Positions 1-5,717 are shown, counted from the first letter of the stretch. The stretch is DNA of 5,717 nucleotides from a virus (IMGVR_UViG_2671180577_000023), one strand, 5' to 3'. Made by a program: numbers and translations. Notes: a model not told the origin generated them from the letters alone.

Positions 1-97
1 TTGTCGCCCATTGTGAGTCATATTCGCCCTGACTTTCCAGAACCATACGGACTGCCCGTTGACGGACTTCAGGGGAAAAACGAGTATTTTTAGTCAT
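1..97 (-). CDS. IS3-family transposase OrfA, N-terminal 32 codons only (continues beyond window start)
   Basis: ATG at 97-95 with AGGA Shine-Dalgarno about 6 nt upstream; translation [32 protein letters not shown] matches the helix-turn-helix N-terminus typical of IS3-family OrfA. Below the ORF-track length threshold because it is partial. Confidence 0.8.
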
Positions 98-151
98 CCT
101 GTTTACCTCTTTCTCAGGAAGTTTAGTCTCCAGGATTCCCGGGGCGGTTCA
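1..151 (-). mobile_element. Left-hand partial IS3-family insertion sequence (IS629/IS1203-like): terminal inverted repeat tip at 151, element body continues left of the window
   Basis: Minus strand from 151 reads TGAACCGCCCCGGGAATCCTGGAGACTAAACTTCC, then AGGA RBS and an ATG at 97-95 opening an ORF that translates [32 protein letters not shown], a recalled IS3-family OrfA N-terminus. The same 14-nt tip TGAACCGCCCCGGG recurs at 5613 on the plus strand. Confidence 0.8.
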
Positions 152-266
152 GTGGGAGCGAGTCTGCGCCGCGCTGCGGGAGCTGAACAAGCACCGGGAT
201 ATTGTTCGACAGATTGTCGATTCATCCGGTCGTATTGTGTCGGAAAAGTGATTGCCGGAGGCGCTT

Positions 267-662
267 ATGGCGAAACCTTTTACACACGAACAGCGGGAAG
301 AACTGAAGGCACGAATTATCGGATTGGTACGCAAAAATGAACGCATGACGATATCGCAACTGGAGAGAGCGACGGGAGCAGGCTGGCATTCAGTCAGACG
401 TTGCCTTGTGGATGTACTGGCTTGTGGCGATTTATACATGTCCGGTAAATACGGTGTTTTTGCATCAGAACAGGTGTATCGCGTATGGCGTAAGACACCG
501 GAGAAAACAACTGACCAGACATTGATTCGAAAGTTACCAGACGGAGAAATTCGCCGCTACGATAGACGCCTGAACATAATCTGTCGCGAGTGCCGGAATA
601 GTGAAGTTATGCAGCGCGTGCTGGCTTTCTATCAGGGGAATTTTCAGGAGGCGGTACTGTGA
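267..662 (+). CDS. Hypothetical prophage protein, possible winged-helix DNA-binding protein (131 aa)
   Basis: ORF-track frame 252..662; the ATG at 267 is preferred because GGAGG sits 5 nt upstream. Stop TGA overlaps the GTG at 659 of the next ORF. Segment MTISQLERATGAGWHSVRRCL looks HTH-like. No family recognised. Confidence 0.6.
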   Translation: MAKPFTHEQREELKARIIGLVRKNERMTISQLERATGAGWHSVRRCLVDVLACGDLYMSGKYGVFASEQVYRVWRKTPEKTTDQTLIRKLPDGEIRRYDRRLNIICRECRNSEVMQRVLAFYQGNFQEAVL

Positions 663-718
663 GTAAATTAGCTATCAGGCTTCAATTGTCGCTGGCATTC
701 GCATCAAAGGAGAATGAG

Positions 719-1303
719 ATGACCACTTTTACAAAAGAGCAGTTAATCAGTCATGTTAGTGAAAATGTAAAGGCGATGAAATTTGCAGTAAAACAGACAG
801 CATTCAAAAATTCTCTCGAGGCAATTGAGTTGGATTTAGCACTGGCCCTTGTTGCTCAGGCTTCGCTGGAAGCAGAGCCCGTGCTTTATATGAATCGATT
901 TACCGGAAAGACATTCTCACTGGAAGAGCAACCCGGTGCTGATAAGGAACCGGAAATATACGTGCCGCTATATGCTGCCCCGCCAGACAGCGCCGCCATG
1001 CTTCAGGCTGGAAACTTTCGGGAAAAGAAGGGTTCGTCAACCAATAATTTTCGGGAAATCTCGGAAACGTCAACCAACCATCCGGTAACTCTGGATGGTT
1101 GGATAAGCTGTAGTGAGCGAATGCCGGATGACGGTCAGCACGTAATTATTTTATGTGATGGCGCATTCGTTCTTTATGCGCAATATCGAGACGGTGAGTT
1201 TTTTGATGTAGTCCGTGATGGTGATGAATTTTTCGAAACACAGAGCCGCAATGTAACCGACTGGATGCCGCTACCAGAACCGCCGCAGGAGGTGCGCCAA
1301 TGA
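719..1303 (+). CDS. Phage protein with C-terminal DUF551-like domain (194 aa from ATG 719; alternative GTG start at 659 gives 214 aa)
   Basis: ORF-track 659..1303. ATG at 719 is preceded by AAGGAG with 6-nt spacing. C-terminus WISCSERMPDDGQHVIILCDG...VTDWMPLPEPP follows the recalled DUF551 pattern common in lambdoid prophages. Confidence 0.7.
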   Translation: MTTFTKEQLISHVSENVKAMKFAVKQTAFKNSLEAIELDLALALVAQASLEAEPVLYMNRFTGKTFSLEEQPGADKEPEIYVPLYAAPPDSAAMLQAGNFREKKGSSTNNFREISETSTNHPVTLDGWISCSERMPDDGQHVIILCDGAFVLYAQYRDGEFFDVVRDGDEFFETQSRNVTDWMPLPEPPQEVRQ

Positions 1304-1383
1304 ACTGGCCTGAAGCATTTGCAATTACAGGCGTTGCTATGGCTATCACCTTTTTAGTATATGTTATTTGTCGGTGGGGGTAA
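1300..1383 (+). CDS. Small hydrophobic peptide, 27 aa (MNWPEAFAITGVAMAITFLVYVICRWG), predicted single transmembrane helix
   Basis: ATG at 1300 overlaps the TGA stop of the DUF551 gene (ATGA); AGGAGG lies 7 nt upstream. Not in the ORF track because it is under the size cutoff. Confidence 0.4.
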   Translation: MNWPEAFAITGVAMAITFLVYVICRWG

Positions 1384-1418
1384 AAACGTTCGCCGGGATT
1401 AACACCAAAGGAGGGAAT

Positions 1419-1523
1419 ATGTCGGATGATATATCACTGGCAATGGAAGGTGCGCTGGCTGTTATTGCTGTTGTGGGCGTTTACTGCCTGGTTGTGTTTT
1501 TGATGGATCGACTAGGGAACTGA
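1419..1523 (+). CDS. Small hydrophobic peptide, 34 aa (MSDDISLAMEGALAVIAVVGVYCLVVFLMDRLGN), predicted single transmembrane helix
   Basis: ATG at 1419 preceded by AAGGAGGG (1408-1415). Hydrophobic core flanked by charged residues. Not in the ORF track because it is under the size cutoff. Confidence 0.45.
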   Translation: MSDDISLAMEGALAVIAVVGVYCLVVFLMDRLGN

Positions 1524-1565
1524 ATTCATTACGATATGGGAATTCCCATATCGGGTAAAAACGGT

Positions 1566-1593
1566 TTGCGGTAAAGCGAGAGTTAAGTAGAAT
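1566..1593 (+). promoter_or_regulatory. Putative sigma70 promoter for the hok-like toxin mRNA (TTGCGG, 16 nt, TAGAAT)
   Basis: Hexamers read directly; position is consistent with a ~400-nt hok-type mRNA ending at the terminator near 2014. Confidence 0.3.
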
Positions 1594-1768
1594 TGCTGCG
1601 GGTGCTTGAGGCTGTCTGCCTCGGGCATGCCACCGTAAGGCAGACAGAGAAAAGCCCCAGTTAACATTACGCGTCCTGCAAGACGCCTAACATTAATCTG
1701 AGGCCAATTTCATGCTAGACACATGTAGGTTAGCCTCTTACGCGCCGAAAGGCAAGGAGAAGCAGGCT

Positions 1769-1924
1769 ATGAAGCAGCAAAAGGCGATGTTAGTCGCCCT
1801 GATCGTCATCTGTATTACCGTCGTAGTGACGGCACTGGTAACGAGGAAAGACCTCTGCGAGGTACGAATCCGAACCGGTCAGACGGAGGTTGCTGTCTTC
1901 ACAGCTTACGAACCTGAGGAGTAA
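1769..1924 (+). CDS. Hok/Gef-family type I toxin (51 aa, small membrane-active peptide)
   Basis: MKQQKAMLVALIVICITVVVTALVTRKDLCEVRIRTGQTEVAVFTAYEPEE has the Hok signature: N-terminal transmembrane helix then TRK.LCE.R...G..EVAAF.AYE. AAGGAG sits 9 nt upstream of the ATG. The ORF track extends the same frame to an ATG at 1712 (mok-like leader frame). Confidence 0.85.
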   Translation: MKQQKAMLVALIVICITVVVTALVTRKDLCEVRIRTGQTEVAVFTAYEPEE

Positions 1925-1992
1925 GAGACCAGGCGAGGGAGAAATCCCTCGCCACCTCTGATGTGTCAGGCATCCTCAACGCACCCGCACTT

Positions 1993-2014
1993 AACCCGCT
2001 TCGGCGGGTTTTTT
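1993..2014 (+). terminator. Rho-independent terminator ending the hok-like mRNA
   Basis: CCCGC-TTCG-GCGGG hairpin followed by TTTTTT. It is preceded at 1932-1953 by a 9-bp stem with GAAA loop (GGCGAGGGA gaaa TCCCTCGCC). Confidence 0.7.
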
Positions 2015-2133
2015 CACTTACTGTGGTTGTGAATACGATTGGTATTAGGCTATGCTAACAACATTAGCCTGACTAATTTTGTATTGACTTGATTTTTGTT
2101 AAAGAACAGGACGGAGAAGTAAGGGTACACCCA

Positions 2134-2313
2134 ATGAGCTACGCACTAAAAAAACACCCGCGATTGACTATTCCCCCTCGCGATAAAAGCGTTGTGGCAG
2201 CTCCGCGCCCGGCTATCGATGAAAATTGCACTCATCGTGAGCAGGTGAAAAATGCTTTCGATTTCGGTTTTTCTCGTTACGAGAAGGCAATGGAAGAACT
2301 TTCAAAAGTGTAA
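2134..2313 (+). CDS. Small protein (60 aa) directly upstream of the Doc-family gene; candidate antitoxin, not Phd-like
   Basis: ATG at 2134 with AAGGG 8 nt upstream; stop at 2311-2313 lies 18 nt before the Doc-like start. ORF-track frame 2089..2313 begins at a TTG. Sequence MSYALKKHPRLTIPPRDKSVVAAPRPAIDENCTHREQVKNAFDFGFSRYEKAMEELSKV shows no resemblance to Phd/YefM. Confidence 0.5.
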   Translation: MSYALKKHPRLTIPPRDKSVVAAPRPAIDENCTHREQVKNAFDFGFSRYEKAMEELSKV

Positions 2314-2331
2314 TGATGGGTATTGTGCTCT

Positions 2332-2817
2332 ATGGCTGAGATTGTTGAAGGAGTGCACTACCTTTCGTTTGATGATCTTACCGAAATTAATCGCCTTTTA
2401 ATTGAGCTTCAAACACCAGATGAACCTGTTAGTGTGCTGAGTGTTGATAATTTAAGTTCTTCTCAGTCTCGTCCCAGCATGGTTCGATGGTATGAACAGA
2501 CTAATGACATGTTTGTACTGGCATCAGTATTGATTGAAAGTCTGATTCAGAATCATCCATTTGCTAATGCAAACAAACGAACAGCTATGATGGCTGGTTA
2601 TGTCTTCTTGTTGTTGAATGGCTATGAGTTAACAGCACCAGGCGATGAAATCGTGGAAATGGCAGAGGGACTGGCCTGCAAAACCTATACTCGAGAAGAT
2701 CTCGAGAACTGGTTGTGTTATTGGTCTCGTGCGTATGACAGCCGGGAATTATGTAAAACAGGCGCAACTATTGTTTTGTATGAAACTATCAAGCTTAAAA
2801 TAGAACAGCAAAACTAA
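2332..2817 (+). CDS. Doc (death-on-curing) / Fic-fold family toxin, 161 aa
   Basis: Contains HPFANANKRTA, which fits the Doc motif H-x-F-x-(D/N)-(A/G)-N-K-R exactly. ORF-track frame 2323..2817 starts at TTG; the first ATG is at 2332. Confidence 0.8.
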   Translation: MAEIVEGVHYLSFDDLTEINRLLIELQTPDEPVSVLSVDNLSSSQSRPSMVRWYEQTNDMFVLASVLIESLIQNHPFANANKRTAMMAGYVFLLLNGYELTAPGDEIVEMAEGLACKTYTREDLENWLCYWSRAYDSRELCKTGATIVLYETIKLKIEQQN

Positions 2818-2833
2818 AGGTGCTTCTAATGAA

Positions 2834-2858
2834 AACCCGCTTCGGCGGGTTTTGTTGT
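2834..2858. terminator. Bidirectional intrinsic terminator between the convergent Doc-like and HigA-like genes
   Basis: CCCGC-TTCG-GCGGG hairpin (2836-2849) with TTTTGTTGT on the plus side and a T-run on the minus side. The hairpin and flanks (AACCCGCTTCGGCGGGTTTT) are identical to the hok terminator at 1993-2012. Confidence 0.6.
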
Positions 2859-2867
2859 ATTGGAGTA

Positions 2868-3185
2868 TCATGATATTACCTGGATCCCGTTTTTCTCTAC
2901 GACTGAAAGAAGGCGAAGAGCGGCACCTCCCGGCCGTTTTACACCACGTTCCCAGTCTGATATCAGGTTTTTACTGACGTTGAGGTATCTGGCAAAAACA
3001 GGTTGAGACAGATGCTCTCGTTCGCGCAGTGCACGGATCCTTTCCGGAGACATTACCGGCGCTGGCTGGAGACAAGTTTCATCGAATTCTCGCATAGTCT
3101 GTTTCGTTACTGCGCCGATATCATGAAGCGATTCCATCATTTCATGTACGGATGCAAGCGCATCACTGCGGTAATTTTTACTCAT
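2868..3185 (-). CDS. HigA-like antitoxin, XRE-type helix-turn-helix (COG2944-like), 105 aa
   Basis: ORF-track 2868..3185. C-terminal SPERIRALREREHLSQPVFARYLNVSKNLISDWERGVKRPGGAALRLL matches the recalled HTH antitoxin family partnered with RelE/ParE-like toxins. Its ATG (3185-3183) overlaps the stop of the upstream toxin frame (ATGAGTAA), the toxin-first order typical of HigBA. Confidence 0.8.
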   Translation of the reverse strand: MSKNYRSDALASVHEMMESLHDIGAVTKQTMREFDETCLQPAPVMSPERIRALREREHLSQPVFARYLNVSKNLISDWERGVKRPGGAALRLLSVVEKNGIQVIS

Positions 3186-3548
3186 TGGGTACCTCCGTAA
3201 ACTGACCCTGTAGAATCAGTTGTGCCAGTTGTTCATCTGTTAGATTGAGTACGTGAGGAGCCGCCTTCCGAAATGCACTTTCCGCAGTAGCGGTTATATT
3301 TTCACGTTCATTTTTTGCGTATGCATATACGAAAAAGGCCCTTGTGCCGACGCGATAGAAAATGATTGTGCGATAACCGCCAGATTTGCCGCCACCGACT
3401 CGTGGCAGACGTTGCTTGATAACGCCGTTACCCAGGTTTGCTGAGATAAGCCCGTTATCAGCCTGTTTAACAATTTCGCGCAGTGATTGGTCGGATATTT
3501 TGTTTTGCGTGCAAATCGCTCAAACCAGGCGTTTTTAAAAATGCGCAT
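3178..3548 (-). pseudogene. RelE/ParE-superfamily (HigB-like) toxin gene, disrupted by a frameshift after codon ~16
   Basis: From ATG 3548-3546 the frame reads MRIFKNAWFERFARK, the conserved N-terminus of this family, then runs into unrelated sequence (ORF-track 3294..3611). The rest of the toxin (KISDQSLREIVKQADNGLISANLGNGVIKQRLPRVGGGKSGGYRTIIFYRVGTRAFFVYAYAKNERENITATAESAFRKAAPHVLNLTDEQLAQLILQGQFTEVPNE) is intact in another frame with no start codon of its own. The break lies in the A-rich tract AAAACAAAATAT (about 3495-3506). Confidence 0.7.
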
Positions 3549-3570
3549 TTTTTGTTCCGTTATTAATGTA

Positions 3571-3585
3571 TAACACATAGTGTTA
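3571..3585. promoter_or_regulatory. Perfect inverted repeat TAACAC-ata-GTGTTA upstream of the higB-like start; candidate operator for the HigA-like repressor
   Basis: 6-bp arms with 3-bp spacer read directly; sits about 25 bp upstream of the toxin ATG in its promoter region. Confidence 0.35.
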
Positions 3586-3615
3586 CATTGCGTAGGGATC
3601 TGCAATGCCATCAGT

Positions 3616-3645
3616 TTGACAACGTCGCGTGTTCGGGGCTATATT
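3616..3645 (+). promoter_or_regulatory. Near-consensus sigma70 promoter (TTGACA, 18 nt, TATATT) driving the leader, c4-like RNA and ORF6N operon
   Basis: Hexamers read directly; the same architecture (TTGACG, 18 nt, TATATT) recurs at 5201-5230 upstream of the paralogous module. Confidence 0.6.
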
Positions 3646-3705
3646 CCTCACGCGCCAGCAAAACCTGGCGTCGGGATTAGCACCCCGGATATCGAAACGG
3701 TGCAT

Positions 3706-3726
3706 AACCGCGCTGGCGGTTTTTTT
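3706..3726 (+). terminator. Terminator-like hairpin plus T7 run in the leader, between target sites and the c4-like RNA (possible attenuator)
   Basis: AACCGC-GCTG-GCGGTT followed by TTTTTTT. The upstream CGCCAG (3653-3658) can pair with either CTGGCG copy (3665-3670 or 3713-3718), giving alternative folds. Confidence 0.45.
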
Positions 3727-3758
3727 ATGCGCTAAGCACAGTCACATTCGCGATTTAT

Positions 3759-3835
3759 GGCGGGCTGTGTGGGGGAGCCGAAAGGCTCGCCGGATGTTTC
3801 GACCGGTAGTGCTAACCCCGCACAGTTCGCCACCA
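3759..3835 (+). ncRNA. Candidate c4-like antisense regulatory RNA (~77 nt) upstream of the ORF6N gene
   Basis: A 16-bp closing helix (3759-3774 with 3816-3831) encloses a GNRA hairpin (GAGCC-GAAA-GGCTC) and two loops. Loop GTTTCGA (3796-3802) is complementary to TCGAAAC at 3692-3698 and 3873-3879; loop GTGCTAA (3809-3815) is complementary to TTAGCAC at 3677-3683 and 3842-3848. A 3-prime ACCA tail follows. The second target pair lies just upstream of the ORF6N RBS. Confidence 0.5.
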
Positions 3836-3890
3836 CGATGATTAGCACCTGACGGTGGCGAGGTAAAAATTATCGAAACGCGAGGTCATT

Positions 3891-4556
3891 ATGGCTGTTC
3901 AAATTTCTGTCGAAAACCTTTCCCCTGTTACCTATAACCAGATCCCCGTAATTACTACTGAACTGTTGGCTCACCTTTACGGAACAAAAATCAAAAACAT
4001 TTCTGATAACTTTCTGAACAACACGACGCGATTCATGCCCGGAAAGCATTACTTTAAAATTGAAAAAAACGAATTACGCGAGTTTAAGAACAGACCCGAA
4101 ACAATCGGGTTAGTTGGTAAAAATGCCCGCTCCCTCATCCTCTGGACAGAACGCGGCGCAGCCCGTCACGCAAAAATGCTCGAAACCGATCGGGCGTGGG
4201 AGGTATTCGAAAAACTGGAAGACTGCTATTTCAGCCAGGGAAAAACAGCACCAACCGAACAGCAGCCGCAGATTCAGCCACAATTCACAGCCGAAGAAAT
4301 CATCCTCCTTTGCTACATGCAGCTCTGGATGGAAAAAGCCCAGGACATCAGCAAACACCTGTATCCCATTATGAAAGAGCTGAACTCCTCATACACGAAC
4401 AAGCTGTATGACATTGCGTTTGAGACCATCTACATGGTGACGAAGAACAGAGACGCGCTACTGAGGGAGGTAACACGTCTCGACATGTCAAGTTCCGTTA
4501 TCCAGCGGGCCATGCCAATGCTGAAAAGCCTGCGGGCAAGACAATTTGAATTCTGA
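3891..4556 (+). CDS. Antirepressor-like protein with N-terminal ORF6N/KilA-N-type domain, 221 aa
   Basis: ORF-track 3891..4556; GAGG lies 5 nt upstream of the ATG. N-terminus MAVQISVENLSPVTYNQIPVITTELLAHLYGT...FMPGKHYFKIEKNELREF matches the recalled ORF6N pattern of phage antirepressors. Confidence 0.75.
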   Translation: MAVQISVENLSPVTYNQIPVITTELLAHLYGTKIKNISDNFLNNTTRFMPGKHYFKIEKNELREFKNRPETIGLVGKNARSLILWTERGAARHAKMLETDRAWEVFEKLEDCYFSQGKTAPTEQQPQIQPQFTAEEIILLCYMQLWMEKAQDISKHLYPIMKELNSSYTNKLYDIAFETIYMVTKNRDALLREVTRLDMSSSVIQRAMPMLKSLRARQFEF

Positions 4557-4560
4557 AACT

Positions 4561-4583
4561 AAAGGAGCTTCGGCTCCTTTTTT
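4561..4583 (+). terminator. Rho-independent terminator after the ORF6N gene
   Basis: GGAGC-TTCG-GCTCC hairpin followed by TTTTTT. Coordinates are approximate to within a base. Confidence 0.7.
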
Positions 4584-4610
4584 GTTGGGAAAATCCAGTG
4601 AGAGGGAATA

Positions 4611-5021
4611 ATGAACCAGACTATCTTCCTCCGAAGTAAGCAGCAGCAACAATTCGCCATTAACGCCATCCTTGCAACAACTCTCGATAAAGACAAACCC
4701 GTTACGATCCGCATCACCGATTACAAGCGGAATCTCGATCAAAATGCCAAATTTCACGCGATGGTCGCTGATATCTCCCGACAGGTTCAGTGGTGCGGCA
4801 GATGGCTAAAACCAGAACAGTGGAAAGTTTTGTTAATCAGCGGTCATGCCGTGGCGACAAAACAGGAAGCTGATGTTTTGCCTGGTCTTGAAGGTGAATA
4901 CGTCAATATCCGCGAAAGCAGTGCGCAGATGAGCGTGAAGCGTATGGCAAGCCTGATTGAGTACACAACTTCCTGGGCTGTGGAGCAGGGTGTCAGATTT
5001 ACCGACAGGAGGTATGAATGA
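4611..5021 (+). CDS. ninB: NinB-family protein (lambda NinB-like single-strand DNA-binding recombination protein), 136 aa
   Basis: ORF-track 4611..5021. Segment [33 protein letters not shown] aligns with the recalled lambda NinB core RSLDQNRKLWACLGDVSRQVEWHGRWLDAESWK. GAGGG RBS upstream. Confidence 0.8.
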
Positions 5022-5200
5022 GACGACAGCGACGAAGCATTACCGATATAGTCTGTGAAAACTGCAATTACCTTCCAACGAAACGTTCCAGAAATAAACC
5101 CAGGCCAATCCCAAAAGAATCTGACGTTAAAGCCTTCAATTACACGGCTCACCTGTGGGATATCCGGTGGCTAAGACATCGTGCGAGGAAAACAAGGTGA
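5018..5200 (+). CDS. ninE: NinE-family protein, 60 aa
   Basis: ORF-track 5018..5200. Start overlaps the ninB stop (ATGA). [60 protein letters not shown] matches the recalled lambda NinE sequence closely. Confidence 0.75.
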
Positions 5201-5230
5201 TTGACGTGATGATTTATTCGGGGCTATATT
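5201..5230 (+). promoter_or_regulatory. Sigma70 promoter (TTGACG, 18 nt, TATATT) of the second leader / c4-like / ORF6N module
   Basis: Same spacing and -10 as the promoter at 3616-3645. The downstream 40 nt (TTCCTCACGCGCCAGCAAAAYCTGGCGTCGGGATT) are nearly identical between modules. Confidence 0.55.
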
Positions 5231-5291
5231 CCTCACGCGCCAGCAAAATCTGGCGTCGGGATTGGCGTCCTGGATAGAGACCGCGACAGAT

Positions 5292-5314
5292 ACACGCCGC
5301 GAGCGTGTTTTTTA
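5292..5314 (+). terminator. Terminator-like hairpin plus T-run in the second leader (counterpart of 3706-3726)
   Basis: ACACGC-CGCGA-GCGTGT followed by TTTTTT. Sequence differs from module A but structure and position are conserved. Confidence 0.5.
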
Positions 5315-5344
5315 TTGTCGTATGCACGCGCACATCTGAATTAT

Positions 5345-5420
5345 GGTGGGCTGTGTGGGGGCGGAGAGATCCGCGCCGGTCGGTTTCCCGGTTACGCCAA
5401 CCCTGCACAGTTCACCACCA
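5345..5420 (+). ncRNA. Second candidate c4-like antisense RNA (~76 nt), diverged paralogue of 3759-3835
   Basis: Same architecture: 16-bp closing helix (5345-5360 with 5401-5416), GNRA hairpin GCGGA-GAGA-TCCGC, two recognition loops, ACCA tail. Loop ACGCCAA (5394-5400) is complementary to TTGGCGT at 5262-5268 and 5426-5432; loop GGTTTC is complementary to GAAACC near the RBS (5453-5458). Confidence 0.5.
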
Positions 5421-5474
5421 GACGATTGGCGTCGTCGGTGGTGAGTTATTAAGAAACCACTCGAGGGCGTCATT

Positions 5475-5615
5475 ATGACAACTCAAATCTCTGTTGAAAC
5501 ACTCTCCACGATTACTTACAAGCAGATCCCCGTTATCACTACCGAACTTTTGGCGCACCTTTACGGCACAGAAGCTATTCGTATTCGCCAGAATCACCAC
5601 GAAAACAAAGGTTGA
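5475..5615 (+). pseudogene. Second ORF6N antirepressor-like gene, truncated after codon 46 by the IS insertion
   Basis: GAGGG RBS then ATG at 5475; MTTQISVETLSTITYKQIPVITTELLAHLYGTEAIRIRQNHHENKG parallels the first 46 residues of the 3891..4556 protein. The frame stops at TGA 5613-5615, which is the first three bases of the IS terminal repeat. Confidence 0.75.
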
Positions 5616-5717
5616 ACCGCCCCGGGTTTCCTGGAGAGTGTTTTATCTGTGAACTCAGGCTGCCAGATCATCGTTTCCGATGGAAGCATAATAAGCTTTT
5701 TCTGCTTCTGCCGGAGG
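5613..5717 (-). mobile_element. Right-hand partial IS3-family insertion sequence (IS629/IS1203-like): terminal repeat at 5613, body continues past the window end
   Basis: Plus strand from 5613 reads TGAACCGCCCCGGGTTTCCTGGAGAGTG, sharing its first 14 nt with the repeat at 151 and diverging after, as expected for the opposite end of the same IS. Same orientation as the left copy. Confidence 0.8.
5655..5717 (-). CDS. IS3-family transposase OrfB, C-terminal 20 codons only (continues beyond window end)
   Basis: Minus-strand frame reads PPAEAEKAYYASIGNDDLAA then TGA (plus 5655-5657), ending about 40 nt inside the terminal repeat, the usual layout for an IS3-family OrfB. Confidence 0.55.
   Translation of the reverse strand, partial: PPAEAEKAYYASIGNDDLAA

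Follow-up and report, generated by a model that had tools for sequence, protein, structure and literature searches.

Two c4/IsrK-type RNA modules with different predicted addresses in the nin region of a lambdoid prophage, one of them with its antirepressor gene truncated by an insertion sequence

What does it mean for one prophage to carry two c4-like antisense RNA modules, built from the same parts, whose short recognition sequences differ from each other? The question is raised by a stretch of viral DNA of 5,717 nucleotides (nt) (IMGVR_UViG_2671180577_000023), hereafter called the window, which represents the early-right/nin region of a lambdoid prophage (5.7 kb) and holds a module A and, 1.6 kb downstream, a module B. 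The heteroimmunity of phages P1 and P7 has been attributed to c4, which has been reviewed as an antisense repressor of ant (PMC12197685). An original prediction, made from the sequence alone, had taken module B for a second c4-like module in which compensatory changes indicated another immunity specificity. The reading reached here, to which a probability of about 0.75 is given, is that the two are paralogous, self-contained c4/IsrK-type riboregulatory modules with different addresses, which came from modular recombination, and that module B has been orphaned by an insertion sequence (IS). The parts of it that are shown directly are family membership, folds, complementarity of the sites, family-wide co-variation and mosaicism.

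The layout is common to both modules and comprises a promoter, an a1/b1 leader with a terminator (IsrK-like), a c4 RNA and the sites a2 and b2 by the ribosome binding site of an ORF6N antirepressor gene. The parts are the following:

3616-3645, plus strand: promoter-like site of module A, TTGACA-18-TATATT, 11 of 12 consensus positions
3639-3726, plus strand: leader of module A, a c4-a1b1 element with an IsrK-like short RNA (Rfam); intrinsic terminator stem at 3706-3721 and T run
3677-3683, plus strand: a1 of A, TTAGCAC, complement of a' (duplex -8.7 kcal/mol)
3692-3698, plus strand: b1 of A, TCGAAAC, complement of b' (duplex -8.4 kcal/mol)
3753-3837, plus strand: c4-A antisense RNA (Rfam C4), with closing stem and GAAA-capped hairpin 1; fold -49.1 kcal/mol, z -6.1
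3842-3848, plus strand: a2 of A, TTAGCAC, exact complement of a'
3873-3879, plus strand: b2 of A, TCGAAAC, 2 nt before the GAGG Shine-Dalgarno sequence (3882-3885) and 11 nt from the ATG
3891-4556, plus strand: antirepressor-like gene A, 221 amino acids (aa), ORF6N and P22_AR_C domains (Pfam); annotated in E. coli ML35 as ORF6N domain protein
4561-4588, plus strand: terminator-like hairpin ending module A
5201-5230, plus strand: promoter-like site of module B, TTGACG-18-TATATT, 10 of 12 consensus positions
5224-5313, plus strand: leader of module B, c4-a1b1 with an IsrK-like short RNA (Rfam); terminator at 5292-5308 and T run
5339-5422, plus strand: c4-B antisense RNA (Rfam C4); fold -44.5 kcal/mol, z -4.3
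5426-5458, plus strand: mRNA-leader targets of module B, a2 TTGGCGT (5426-5432) and b2 GAAACC (5453-5458), followed by a GAGG Shine-Dalgarno sequence

When the window was searched with Rfam cmscan, the same three families were found at both places and always above the gathering score: c4-a1b1 (RF03163, gathering score 46.7) at 3639-3691 (47.4 bits) and 5224-5276 (50.5 bits), isrK (RF01394, gathering score 50) at 3652-3726 (74.3 bits) and 5237-5313 (75.5 bits), and C4 (RF01695, gathering score 45) at 3753-3837 (75.1 bits) and 5339-5422 (66.7 bits). A repeat finder places the copies 1584-1586 bp apart. The features of isrK membership, that is, covariance score, consensus promoter and terminator, are present in both modules, transcription itself being predicted. 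The leaders (3632-3691 and 5217-5276) are 92% identical, with differences mainly within the a1 site. The original prediction had described a repeated module with shared promoter architecture, terminator-like hairpins and a near-identical start, and all of this was recovered, with near-consensus promoter sites and hairpins in the expected places.

It is in the short recognition elements that the modules part. In c4-A, the loop of hairpin 2 presents b' (GTTTCGA, 3796-3802), and a' (GTGCTAA, 3809-3815) falls in a single-stranded stretch; the equivalents in c4-B are CGGTTTC (5381-5387) and ACGCCAA (5394-5400). Each a' is the exact complement of a1 and a2 of its own module, so that the coordinated change claimed for this element, GTGCTAA to ACGCCAA in the RNA and TTAGCAC to TTGGCGT at both targets (a1 of B at 5262-5268), is indeed there. 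As regards the second element, b' of A has exact complements at both b1 and b2, and b' of B at b2 (GAAACC), while b1 of B is GAGACCG (5277-5283) and pairs through one G.U; the proposed shift from TCGAAAC to GAAACC therefore stands for b' and b2 but not for b1. The b2 site of B adjoins the GAGG Shine-Dalgarno sequence and ends 16 nt before the ATG (5475).

The minimum free energy folds of c4-A and c4-B have the Y shape of the P1 and P7 c4 RNAs, consisting of a long closing stem, hairpin 1 with its tetraloop, and hairpin 2. The stem changes which had been described between the modules are all present with the fold kept: in the closing stem one C-G pair of A is U-A in B and one G-C pair is G-U, and hairpin 1 has been wholly re-coded without loss of pairing (GAGCC-GAAA-GGCTC in A, GCGGA-GAGA-TCCGC in B). 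The scoring of compensatory substitutions that had been called for on a wider alignment was carried out with RNAalifold on 48 relatives, including P1 and P7, and gave compensatory changes at 14 of 24 stem pairs; among these is the C-G/U-A position of the closing stem (UA 36, CG 5, UG 4). Hairpin 2 was not recovered by RNAalifold in the 48 relatives, since its b' loop differs in length among them and its stem hardly changes. Its stem rests on the single-sequence folds and on the difference between P1 and P7 (GCTGG/CCAGT and GCCGG/CCGGT).

Two further features lie in or near the c4 region. Each c4 has a conserved AUG at its 5' end, from which short open reading frames (ORFs) of 31 and 33 codons run (3757-3852 and 5343-5444), in the position of orf45 in the Salmonella prophage Gifsy-1; they stop 38 nt (A) and 30 nt (B) before the antirepressor ATG and their peptides part ways after six residues, which looks like conservation at the RNA level rather than at the protein level. 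In addition, a copy of the c4 5' arm lies just 3' of a2 (GGTGGCG, 3854-3860, in A; GGTGGTG, 5437-5443, in B), complementary to the c4 3' arm (CGCCACC, 3829-3835; CACCACC, 5413-5419), the arms changing together here as well as in the IMG/VR modules L026, L034 and L107. Folded alone, the segment carrying the copy forms a hairpin with a2 in or near its loop, and this may represent an alternative structure which competes with the c4 closing stem.

Whether sites as short as these are genuine recognition elements can best be judged from the family as a whole. A scan of IMG/VR for the c4 scaffold gave at least 120 loci, and among the matches listed there are 97 unique modules, in which 13 a' strings and 29 b' strings form 38 combinations. 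In this same set, an exact complement of a' of at least 7 nt is found at a2 in 99% of cases within a module and in 9% between classes, and a complement of b' of at least 6 nt at b2 in 97% within a module and in 12% between classes; moreover, at least 10 a-words are each present at both a1 and a2 in modules with the complementary a'. One b' may go with varied a' and vice versa, as when, among the matches listed, b' ATGTTTCGA is combined with a' AGTGCT, TACGCC or AGTTCC. With the six sites in interleaved order (a1 b1 ... b' a' ... a2 b2), a single crossover would be unable to swap one determinant. This three-way co-variation is the main support for taking the short sites as real recognition elements and for placing A and B in different specificity classes.

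The same data bear on the simplest objection, namely that the resemblance is due to chance or low complexity and that no real RNA elements are involved. Each complementary site measures only 6-7 nt, and TTGGCGT occurs three times in the window where 0.93 are expected, which is not striking alone. Against this stand six Rfam matches above curated thresholds, stems that co-vary, and sites at homologous positions in the 97 relatives listed; chance is excluded because the co-variation is position-specific, and the objection can be taken as ruled out for all practical purposes.

In the mechanism proposed, a strong constitutive promoter would drive a leader with the decoy sites a1 and b1, and most transcripts would end at the intrinsic terminator, giving a short IsrK-like RNA. 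Transcripts that read through would contain the c4 RNA, of about 80 nt, and then the mRNA leader of the ORF6N/P22_AR_C antirepressor gene. By presenting b' in a hairpin loop and a' single-stranded, c4 would pair with b2 and a2 in the leader, and translation of the antirepressor would be blocked, because b2 abuts the Shine-Dalgarno sequence; the a1/b1 leader, or the short RNA, would compete for the c4 elements and so provide the activating side of the switch. The addresses would be TTAGCAC (a) and TCGAAAC (b) for A, and TTGGCGT (a) and GAAACC (b) for B. Transcription, processing of c4, translational repression and the lack of cross-repression are what we infer from this arrangement, the experimental backing coming from relatives (P1, P7 and Gifsy-1). 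A cis structural layer probably coexists with repression by c4, and the pairing of the 5'-arm copy with the c4 3' arm may be part of it. As to history, modular recombination would have filled two alternative slots of the nin region, and an IS3-family insertion would later have removed the antirepressor of B.

The contrast between the two addresses can be expressed in energies, with P1 and P7, which show two base differences in a' and two in b', as the yardstick. Summed over the four sites in register, the cognate duplexes amount to -34.2 kcal/mol for A and -36.1 kcal/mol for B, and the crossed ones to -18.3 kcal/mol (c4-A on B) and -13.3 kcal/mol (c4-B on A); the corresponding in-register values for P1 and P7 are about -33 kcal/mol (cognate) and -13 to -15 kcal/mol (crossed), and the contrast is therefore equal. 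With such different addresses, each c4 should act mainly on its own leader, as in the heteroimmune P1 and P7, and each module probably controls only its own target.

How much of module B is still in place had, however, to be revised. The ORF6N gene predicted for it turned out to be an ORF6N N-terminus, a stub of 46 codons (5475-5615) left where an IS3-family element interrupts the gene, and the modules, described as side by side, do share one orientation but are not adjacent, as antirepressor gene A, ninB and ninE intervene:

4611-5200, plus strand: ninB (4611-5021) and ninE (5018-5200), between modules A and B
5475-5612, plus strand: first 45 native codons of antirepressor gene B (ORF6N N-terminus), up to the IS3-family end at 5613
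5613-5717, no strand assigned: end of an IS3-family element (IS1203/IS629-like) which cuts gene B; homology break at 5612

From 151 to 5612 the window matches a prophage of E. coli ML35 at 100% identity; in that prophage the homologous region sits between the replication genes and rusA-ninH-Q, and the intact gene B encodes 227 aa and is followed by a KilAC antirepressor gene. Homology to intact prophages spans exactly 151-5612, and the sequence from 5613 onward matches IS3-family transposase loci, so that ends of IS3-family (IS1203/IS629-like) elements, at 1-151 (minus strand) and 5613-5717, bracket a 5.46-kb piece of prophage. Both IS ends share one orientation and each starts TGAACCGCCCCGGG; the start of OrfA, the transposase, falls within the left-hand end. 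In module B the promoter and terminator, the decoy, c4-B and both targets, a2 and b2, remain intact, and c4-B, if made, is without a cis target of consequence in this genome.

Such a state invites the view that module B is a non-functional remnant of an IS-broken prophage and that the differences between A and B are ordinary divergence of old paralogues, in which no specificity has been selected. The truncation of gene B, the IS3-family ends on both sides of the segment, the frameshift in a nearby RelE-like toxin gene and the identity of only 48% between proteins A and B all speak for it. Nevertheless, B has kept its RNA part whole, at 98.9% identity to that of inducible Shiga toxin (Stx) phages, its six recognition sites being preserved and complementary; the A/B differences are compensatory in the stems and coordinated over three sites for a and for b; and 16 complete E. 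coli genomes carry the pair without interruption. Decay of a duplicate is for these reasons considered very unlikely as the explanation.

The origin of the pair can be followed in related phages. Module B is 98.9-99.3% identical to the leader which precedes ant-roi in VT2-Sakai and in many Stx phages, where it is placed after ninE, and the three base differences from the VT2-Sakai ant leader all fall outside the recognition elements. Module A is 100% identical to the copy in phage PhiR12_3, in a like context, and an A-type RNA (about 99% identity) precedes ant-roi in Min27, that is, in the other nin slot. The antirepressors are mosaic too: in the Ant of Min27 (L124, 4260-4937) the N-terminal ORF6N half is that of protein A and the C-terminal half that of the B-type Ant, and in the PhiR12_3 protein (L125, 4276-4947) an A-type N-terminal half is followed by a third C-terminus, the VT2-Sakai antirepressor (L126, 4275-5009) having been used in the comparison. 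The crossover lies near a conserved LILWTERGAARHAKMLETD segment, and the RNA module travels with the N-terminal half. These mosaic proteins, together with the 48% identity of A and B, indicate that the pair comes from modular recombination filling two nin slots and not from recent duplication. A recent local duplication was considered as the origin and ruled out, the proteins being 48% identical and each module being found alone elsewhere at 99-100%. The original prediction had suggested recombination between phages of different immunity types, and the mosaicism, with the A-type RNA in the other slot of Min27 and protein halves exchanged among Min27, PhiR12_3 and the window, supports recombination between phages.

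Several observations weigh against two separate switches of the P1 kind. In this genome module B is without a payload, and its specificity controls nothing in cis. As for the addresses, a' of c4-A reaches the a sites of B by seven pairs, three of them G.U wobbles (-4.6 kcal/mol), the three A/B differences in the a element being all transitions; in the reverse direction, c4-B a' on the a sites of A, three A.C mismatches would be needed. A GUUUC core is common to both b' loops, and unrestricted scans give off-register sites nearly as strong as the cognate ones, such as a' of c4-B on GUGGCGA at 3855-3861 (-8.5 kcal/mol). The claim that pairing is kept within the modules and not between them holds for the in-register contrast, which equals that of P1 and P7, but has to be tempered by these wobbles and by the shared GUUUC. 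P1 and P7 also offer each other off-register sites of equal strength, and such sites were for this reason judged non-predictive; wide-window duplex scans were set aside as a measure of cross-talk, and the comparison is based on in-register energies, the wide-window result being kept as a caveat. Furthermore, no icd-like coupling ORF as in P1 was found in the window. Finally, in the isrK-orf45/STnc1160-anrP locus of Gifsy-1, mutations of a1 de-repress anrP in cis, and co-expression of STnc1160, the c4 homologue, failed to relieve IsrK toxicity (PMC4825925); neither result is predicted by a simple model of c4 as repressor and IsrK as sponge.

The experiments on Gifsy-1, the closest studied homologue, back another model (PMC4825925), a purely cis-acting switch of the IsrK type. 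The long transcript would adopt an inactive fold in which the a1 region is paired with the 3' half of c4; the short IsrK would open this fold in trans, allowing a small ORF to be translated from the conserved AUG of the c4 5' end and to be coupled to the antirepressor. The A/B differences would then only separate two paralogous self-regulating circuits, with neither a trans repressor nor immunity. Module B is co-linear with the Gifsy-1 locus at 7 of 9 named positions, the equivalent AUG, at 3757 in A and 5343 in B, opens ORFs of 31 and 33 codons, and an alternative fold is available if the 5'-arm copy beyond a2 pairs with the c4 3' arm. Such a switch, however, assigns no role to a2 and b2, yet these co-vary with a' and b' in 97-99% of the 97 modules among the matches listed, a co-variation which speaks for c4 pairing with the mRNA leader as in P1. 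Moreover, with small ORFs that end 38 and 30 nt short of the ATG and encode divergent peptides, classical coupling is doubtful here, and the P1 and P7 c4 RNAs, alike in fold and layout, have been reviewed as trans-acting repressors (PMC12197685). A switch acting in cis alone is consequently thought rather unlikely, and two c4/IsrK-type modules with different addresses continue to be preferred.

How common such pairs are was evaluated in several collections. In INPHARED, module A matched 253 records and module B 276, with one blastn place per record for either module, and the segment from A to B was found, at a coverage of at least 80%, in 16 of 5426 complete E. coli genomes, where the pair is uninterrupted. 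More than one C4 occurs in 6 of the 120 IMG/VR loci among the matches listed, one of them being the A/B pair seen here. In contigs representing one genome per species, a loosened pattern gave 120 loci, about half of them false (in GC-rich genomes), of which an nhmmer filter left about 61 as genuine; two c4 modules are found in 6 of these, from Pseudomonas putida, Pectobacterium, Symbiopectobacterium, and metagenome-assembled genomes of Azoarcus and Thiocystis. The multi-module loci were confirmed by Rfam. Multiple modules therefore make up about 5-10% of the sampled loci, with up to four in a row, and a second module is uncommon but recurrent. The description of two systems in one prophage as unusual is accordingly borne out by the E. 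coli genomes (16 of 5426) and by the single INPHARED matches, but not by the other collections, where 6 of 120 and 6 of about 61 loci have two to four. The longest array is that of L107 (2349-5108; IMG/VR UViG_2806310672_000003), in which four complete c4 modules follow each other at a pitch of about 850 bp, each having its own promoter, IsrK-like leader, c4 and targets along with a small MATTP... gene. No two of the four b' loops are alike, and a' CTGCTAA is common to two modules.

Differences in a', b' or both, with the targets changed to match, set apart the modules in each of the 12 distinct multi-module arrangements, and none has co-resident modules sharing both a' and b'. An avoidance of identical addresses in co-resident modules is not claimed, since 0 of 12 is not significant when the chance of random class-sharing is, on a rough estimate, about 0.06. 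A tandem c4 pair in Symbiopectobacterium sp. RP (L235, 210-1230) is 93% identical, and 11 of its 17 non-coding differences lie inside b1, b' and b2 (Fisher p = 4e-10), a pattern that resembles a joint re-coding of a single address element following duplication.

From these observations a broader proposal can be put forward, although only tentatively: c4-type switches would use a large two-part address code, freely combined, and prophages would stack two to four non-cognate modules which, beyond regulating their own antirepressors, would form a trans-acting layer of immunity between co-resident and incoming phages. Equally speculative is the joint claim that, after a duplication, decoy, antisense loop and mRNA site are re-coded together and the rest is left unchanged. 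In this context, the word immunity in the original prediction needs a qualification. The c4-type modules with different addresses are there, but a trans-acting immunity is suggested by analogy with P1 and P7, and the role demonstrated for IsrK in Gifsy-1 is the control of the prophage's own antirepressor (PMC4825925). If the address code holds, the IS-orphaned c4-B would silence the antirepressor of Stx phages of the VT2-Sakai type and affect their induction; with its address as in the Stx2 phage VT2-Sakai, it is a candidate for a defective-prophage modulator of toxin-phage induction. The existence of many specificity classes would also make antirepressor cross-talk among the prophages of polylysogens, such as enterohaemorrhagic E. 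coli, directly testable.

The remaining genes of the window complete the picture of its surroundings. Their order is hok/sok, a Doc-type toxin pair, a helix-turn-helix (HTH) antitoxin with a frameshifted RelE-like toxin, module A with its ORF6N antirepressor gene, ninB and ninE, and module B; the host element is a lambdoid prophage and has a repressor of the CI/LexA type. The hok/sok type I toxin-antitoxin locus is complete (1600-1924; Rfam sok 116.9 bits), its Hok ORF (1712-1924) corresponding to HokD in the ML35 annotation. The region 2134-2817 contains the gene of a Doc/Fic-type 'death-on-curing' toxin (2323-2817, motif HPFANANKRTA), preceded by a small ORF which may be the antitoxin. On the minus strand (region 2868-3548), the HTH antitoxin gene (2868-3185) is intact, while the RelE/ParE-like toxin upstream of it is split over two frames by a frameshift near an A-run at about 3500-3510, with the N-terminus MRIFKNAWFERFARK in one frame and the conserved body ...SDQSLREIVKQADNGL...EVPNE in the other; in ML35 the identical sequence is annotated as an intact gene with a non-standard start.

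As regards known systems, the RNA families themselves (C4, c4-a1b1 and isrK) have been described, so that the elements are no discovery; the c4 antisense RNA and c4-a1b1 were listed in Proteobacteria and phages by Weinberg et al. (2010). No paper was found on specificity classes or on tandem or stacked c4-like modules in lambdoid prophages, an absence which is not proof, and the stacking of modules with different specificity appears to be undescribed. One system for comparison is the CI RNA (seqA/seqC) of satellite phage P4, a processed small RNA between upstream and downstream copies of its own target, which was cited by Hershko-Shalev et al. as a structural analogue of IsrK (PMC4825925). It acts, unlike the mechanism proposed here, by premature termination of transcription of the replication genes. 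Another comprises the ant-roi regions of the Stx phages VT2-Sakai, the 933W group, Min27 and phi24B: the B-type leader precedes ant in VT2-Sakai and in many Stx1 and Stx2 phages, and the A-type RNA is found in Min27, but, in contrast to the window, each record gives a single blastn match to each module. The Ant of phi24B speeds induction (PMC3064807), and the RNA elements of these phages are not discussed in the papers that were found.

The closest system is the isrK-orf45/STnc1160-anrP locus of Gifsy-1 in Salmonella (Hershko-Shalev et al. 2016, PMC4825925). Both window modules give isrK matches above the gathering score, and the Gifsy-1 locus produces a terminated short RNA and a read-through mRNA with an antirepressor downstream, as proposed for the window. 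Compared by means of the published positions, C18, G28, G31, A107 (of the AUG), G114, C159 and C162 fall on the same bases in module B, where G28/C162 and G31/C159 are a1:a' pairs, so that the a address of Gifsy-1, as deduced from those positions, would be TTGGCGT as in module B. IsrK in trans raises anrP translation 139-fold, and the changes G28A/G31A and C162U/C159U de-repress when made singly and re-repress when combined (PMC4825925); their sites map onto a1 and a' of module B. The published model, unlike that proposed here, is one of structural switching in cis with activation by IsrK and coupling through orf45, in which STnc1160 is not treated as a c4-type trans repressor, and the small ORFs of the window stop well short of the antirepressor ATG. 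Nevertheless, the co-variation of a2 and b2 argues that the Gifsy-1 IsrK locus and the Stx ant leaders work, at least partly, like the c4 of P1.

In the immI regions of P1 and P7, the parts follow in the same order as in the window modules (promoter, a1, b1, c4, a2, b2, regulated gene), the RNA folds into a Y whose second hairpin loop holds b' and in which a' is left single-stranded, the a site measures 7 nt and the b site lies by the ribosome binding site; a few bases in a' and b' set the specificity, and the targets change to match. In the annotated geometry of P1, the a sites have 7 nt and the b sites 8 nt, with a2 just after c4 and b2 ending 10 nt before the start codon. The P1 c4 RNA is excised from the primary transcript by RNase P. 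The window modules differ in that they lack an icd ORF, b2 standing directly before the antirepressor start; in that their antirepressor is of the ORF6N and P22_AR_C type, whereas Ant1/Ant2 are of the KilAC type (P1 Ant1, PF03374); in the intrinsic terminator between b1 and c4, which would give an IsrK-like short RNA; in their host, a lambdoid prophage with a CI/LexA-type repressor rather than the C1 of P1; and in their number, two in one element. The modules would thus work in the manner of immI without being immI, and the observation would extend the textbook logic of P1 and P7 to lambdoid prophages.

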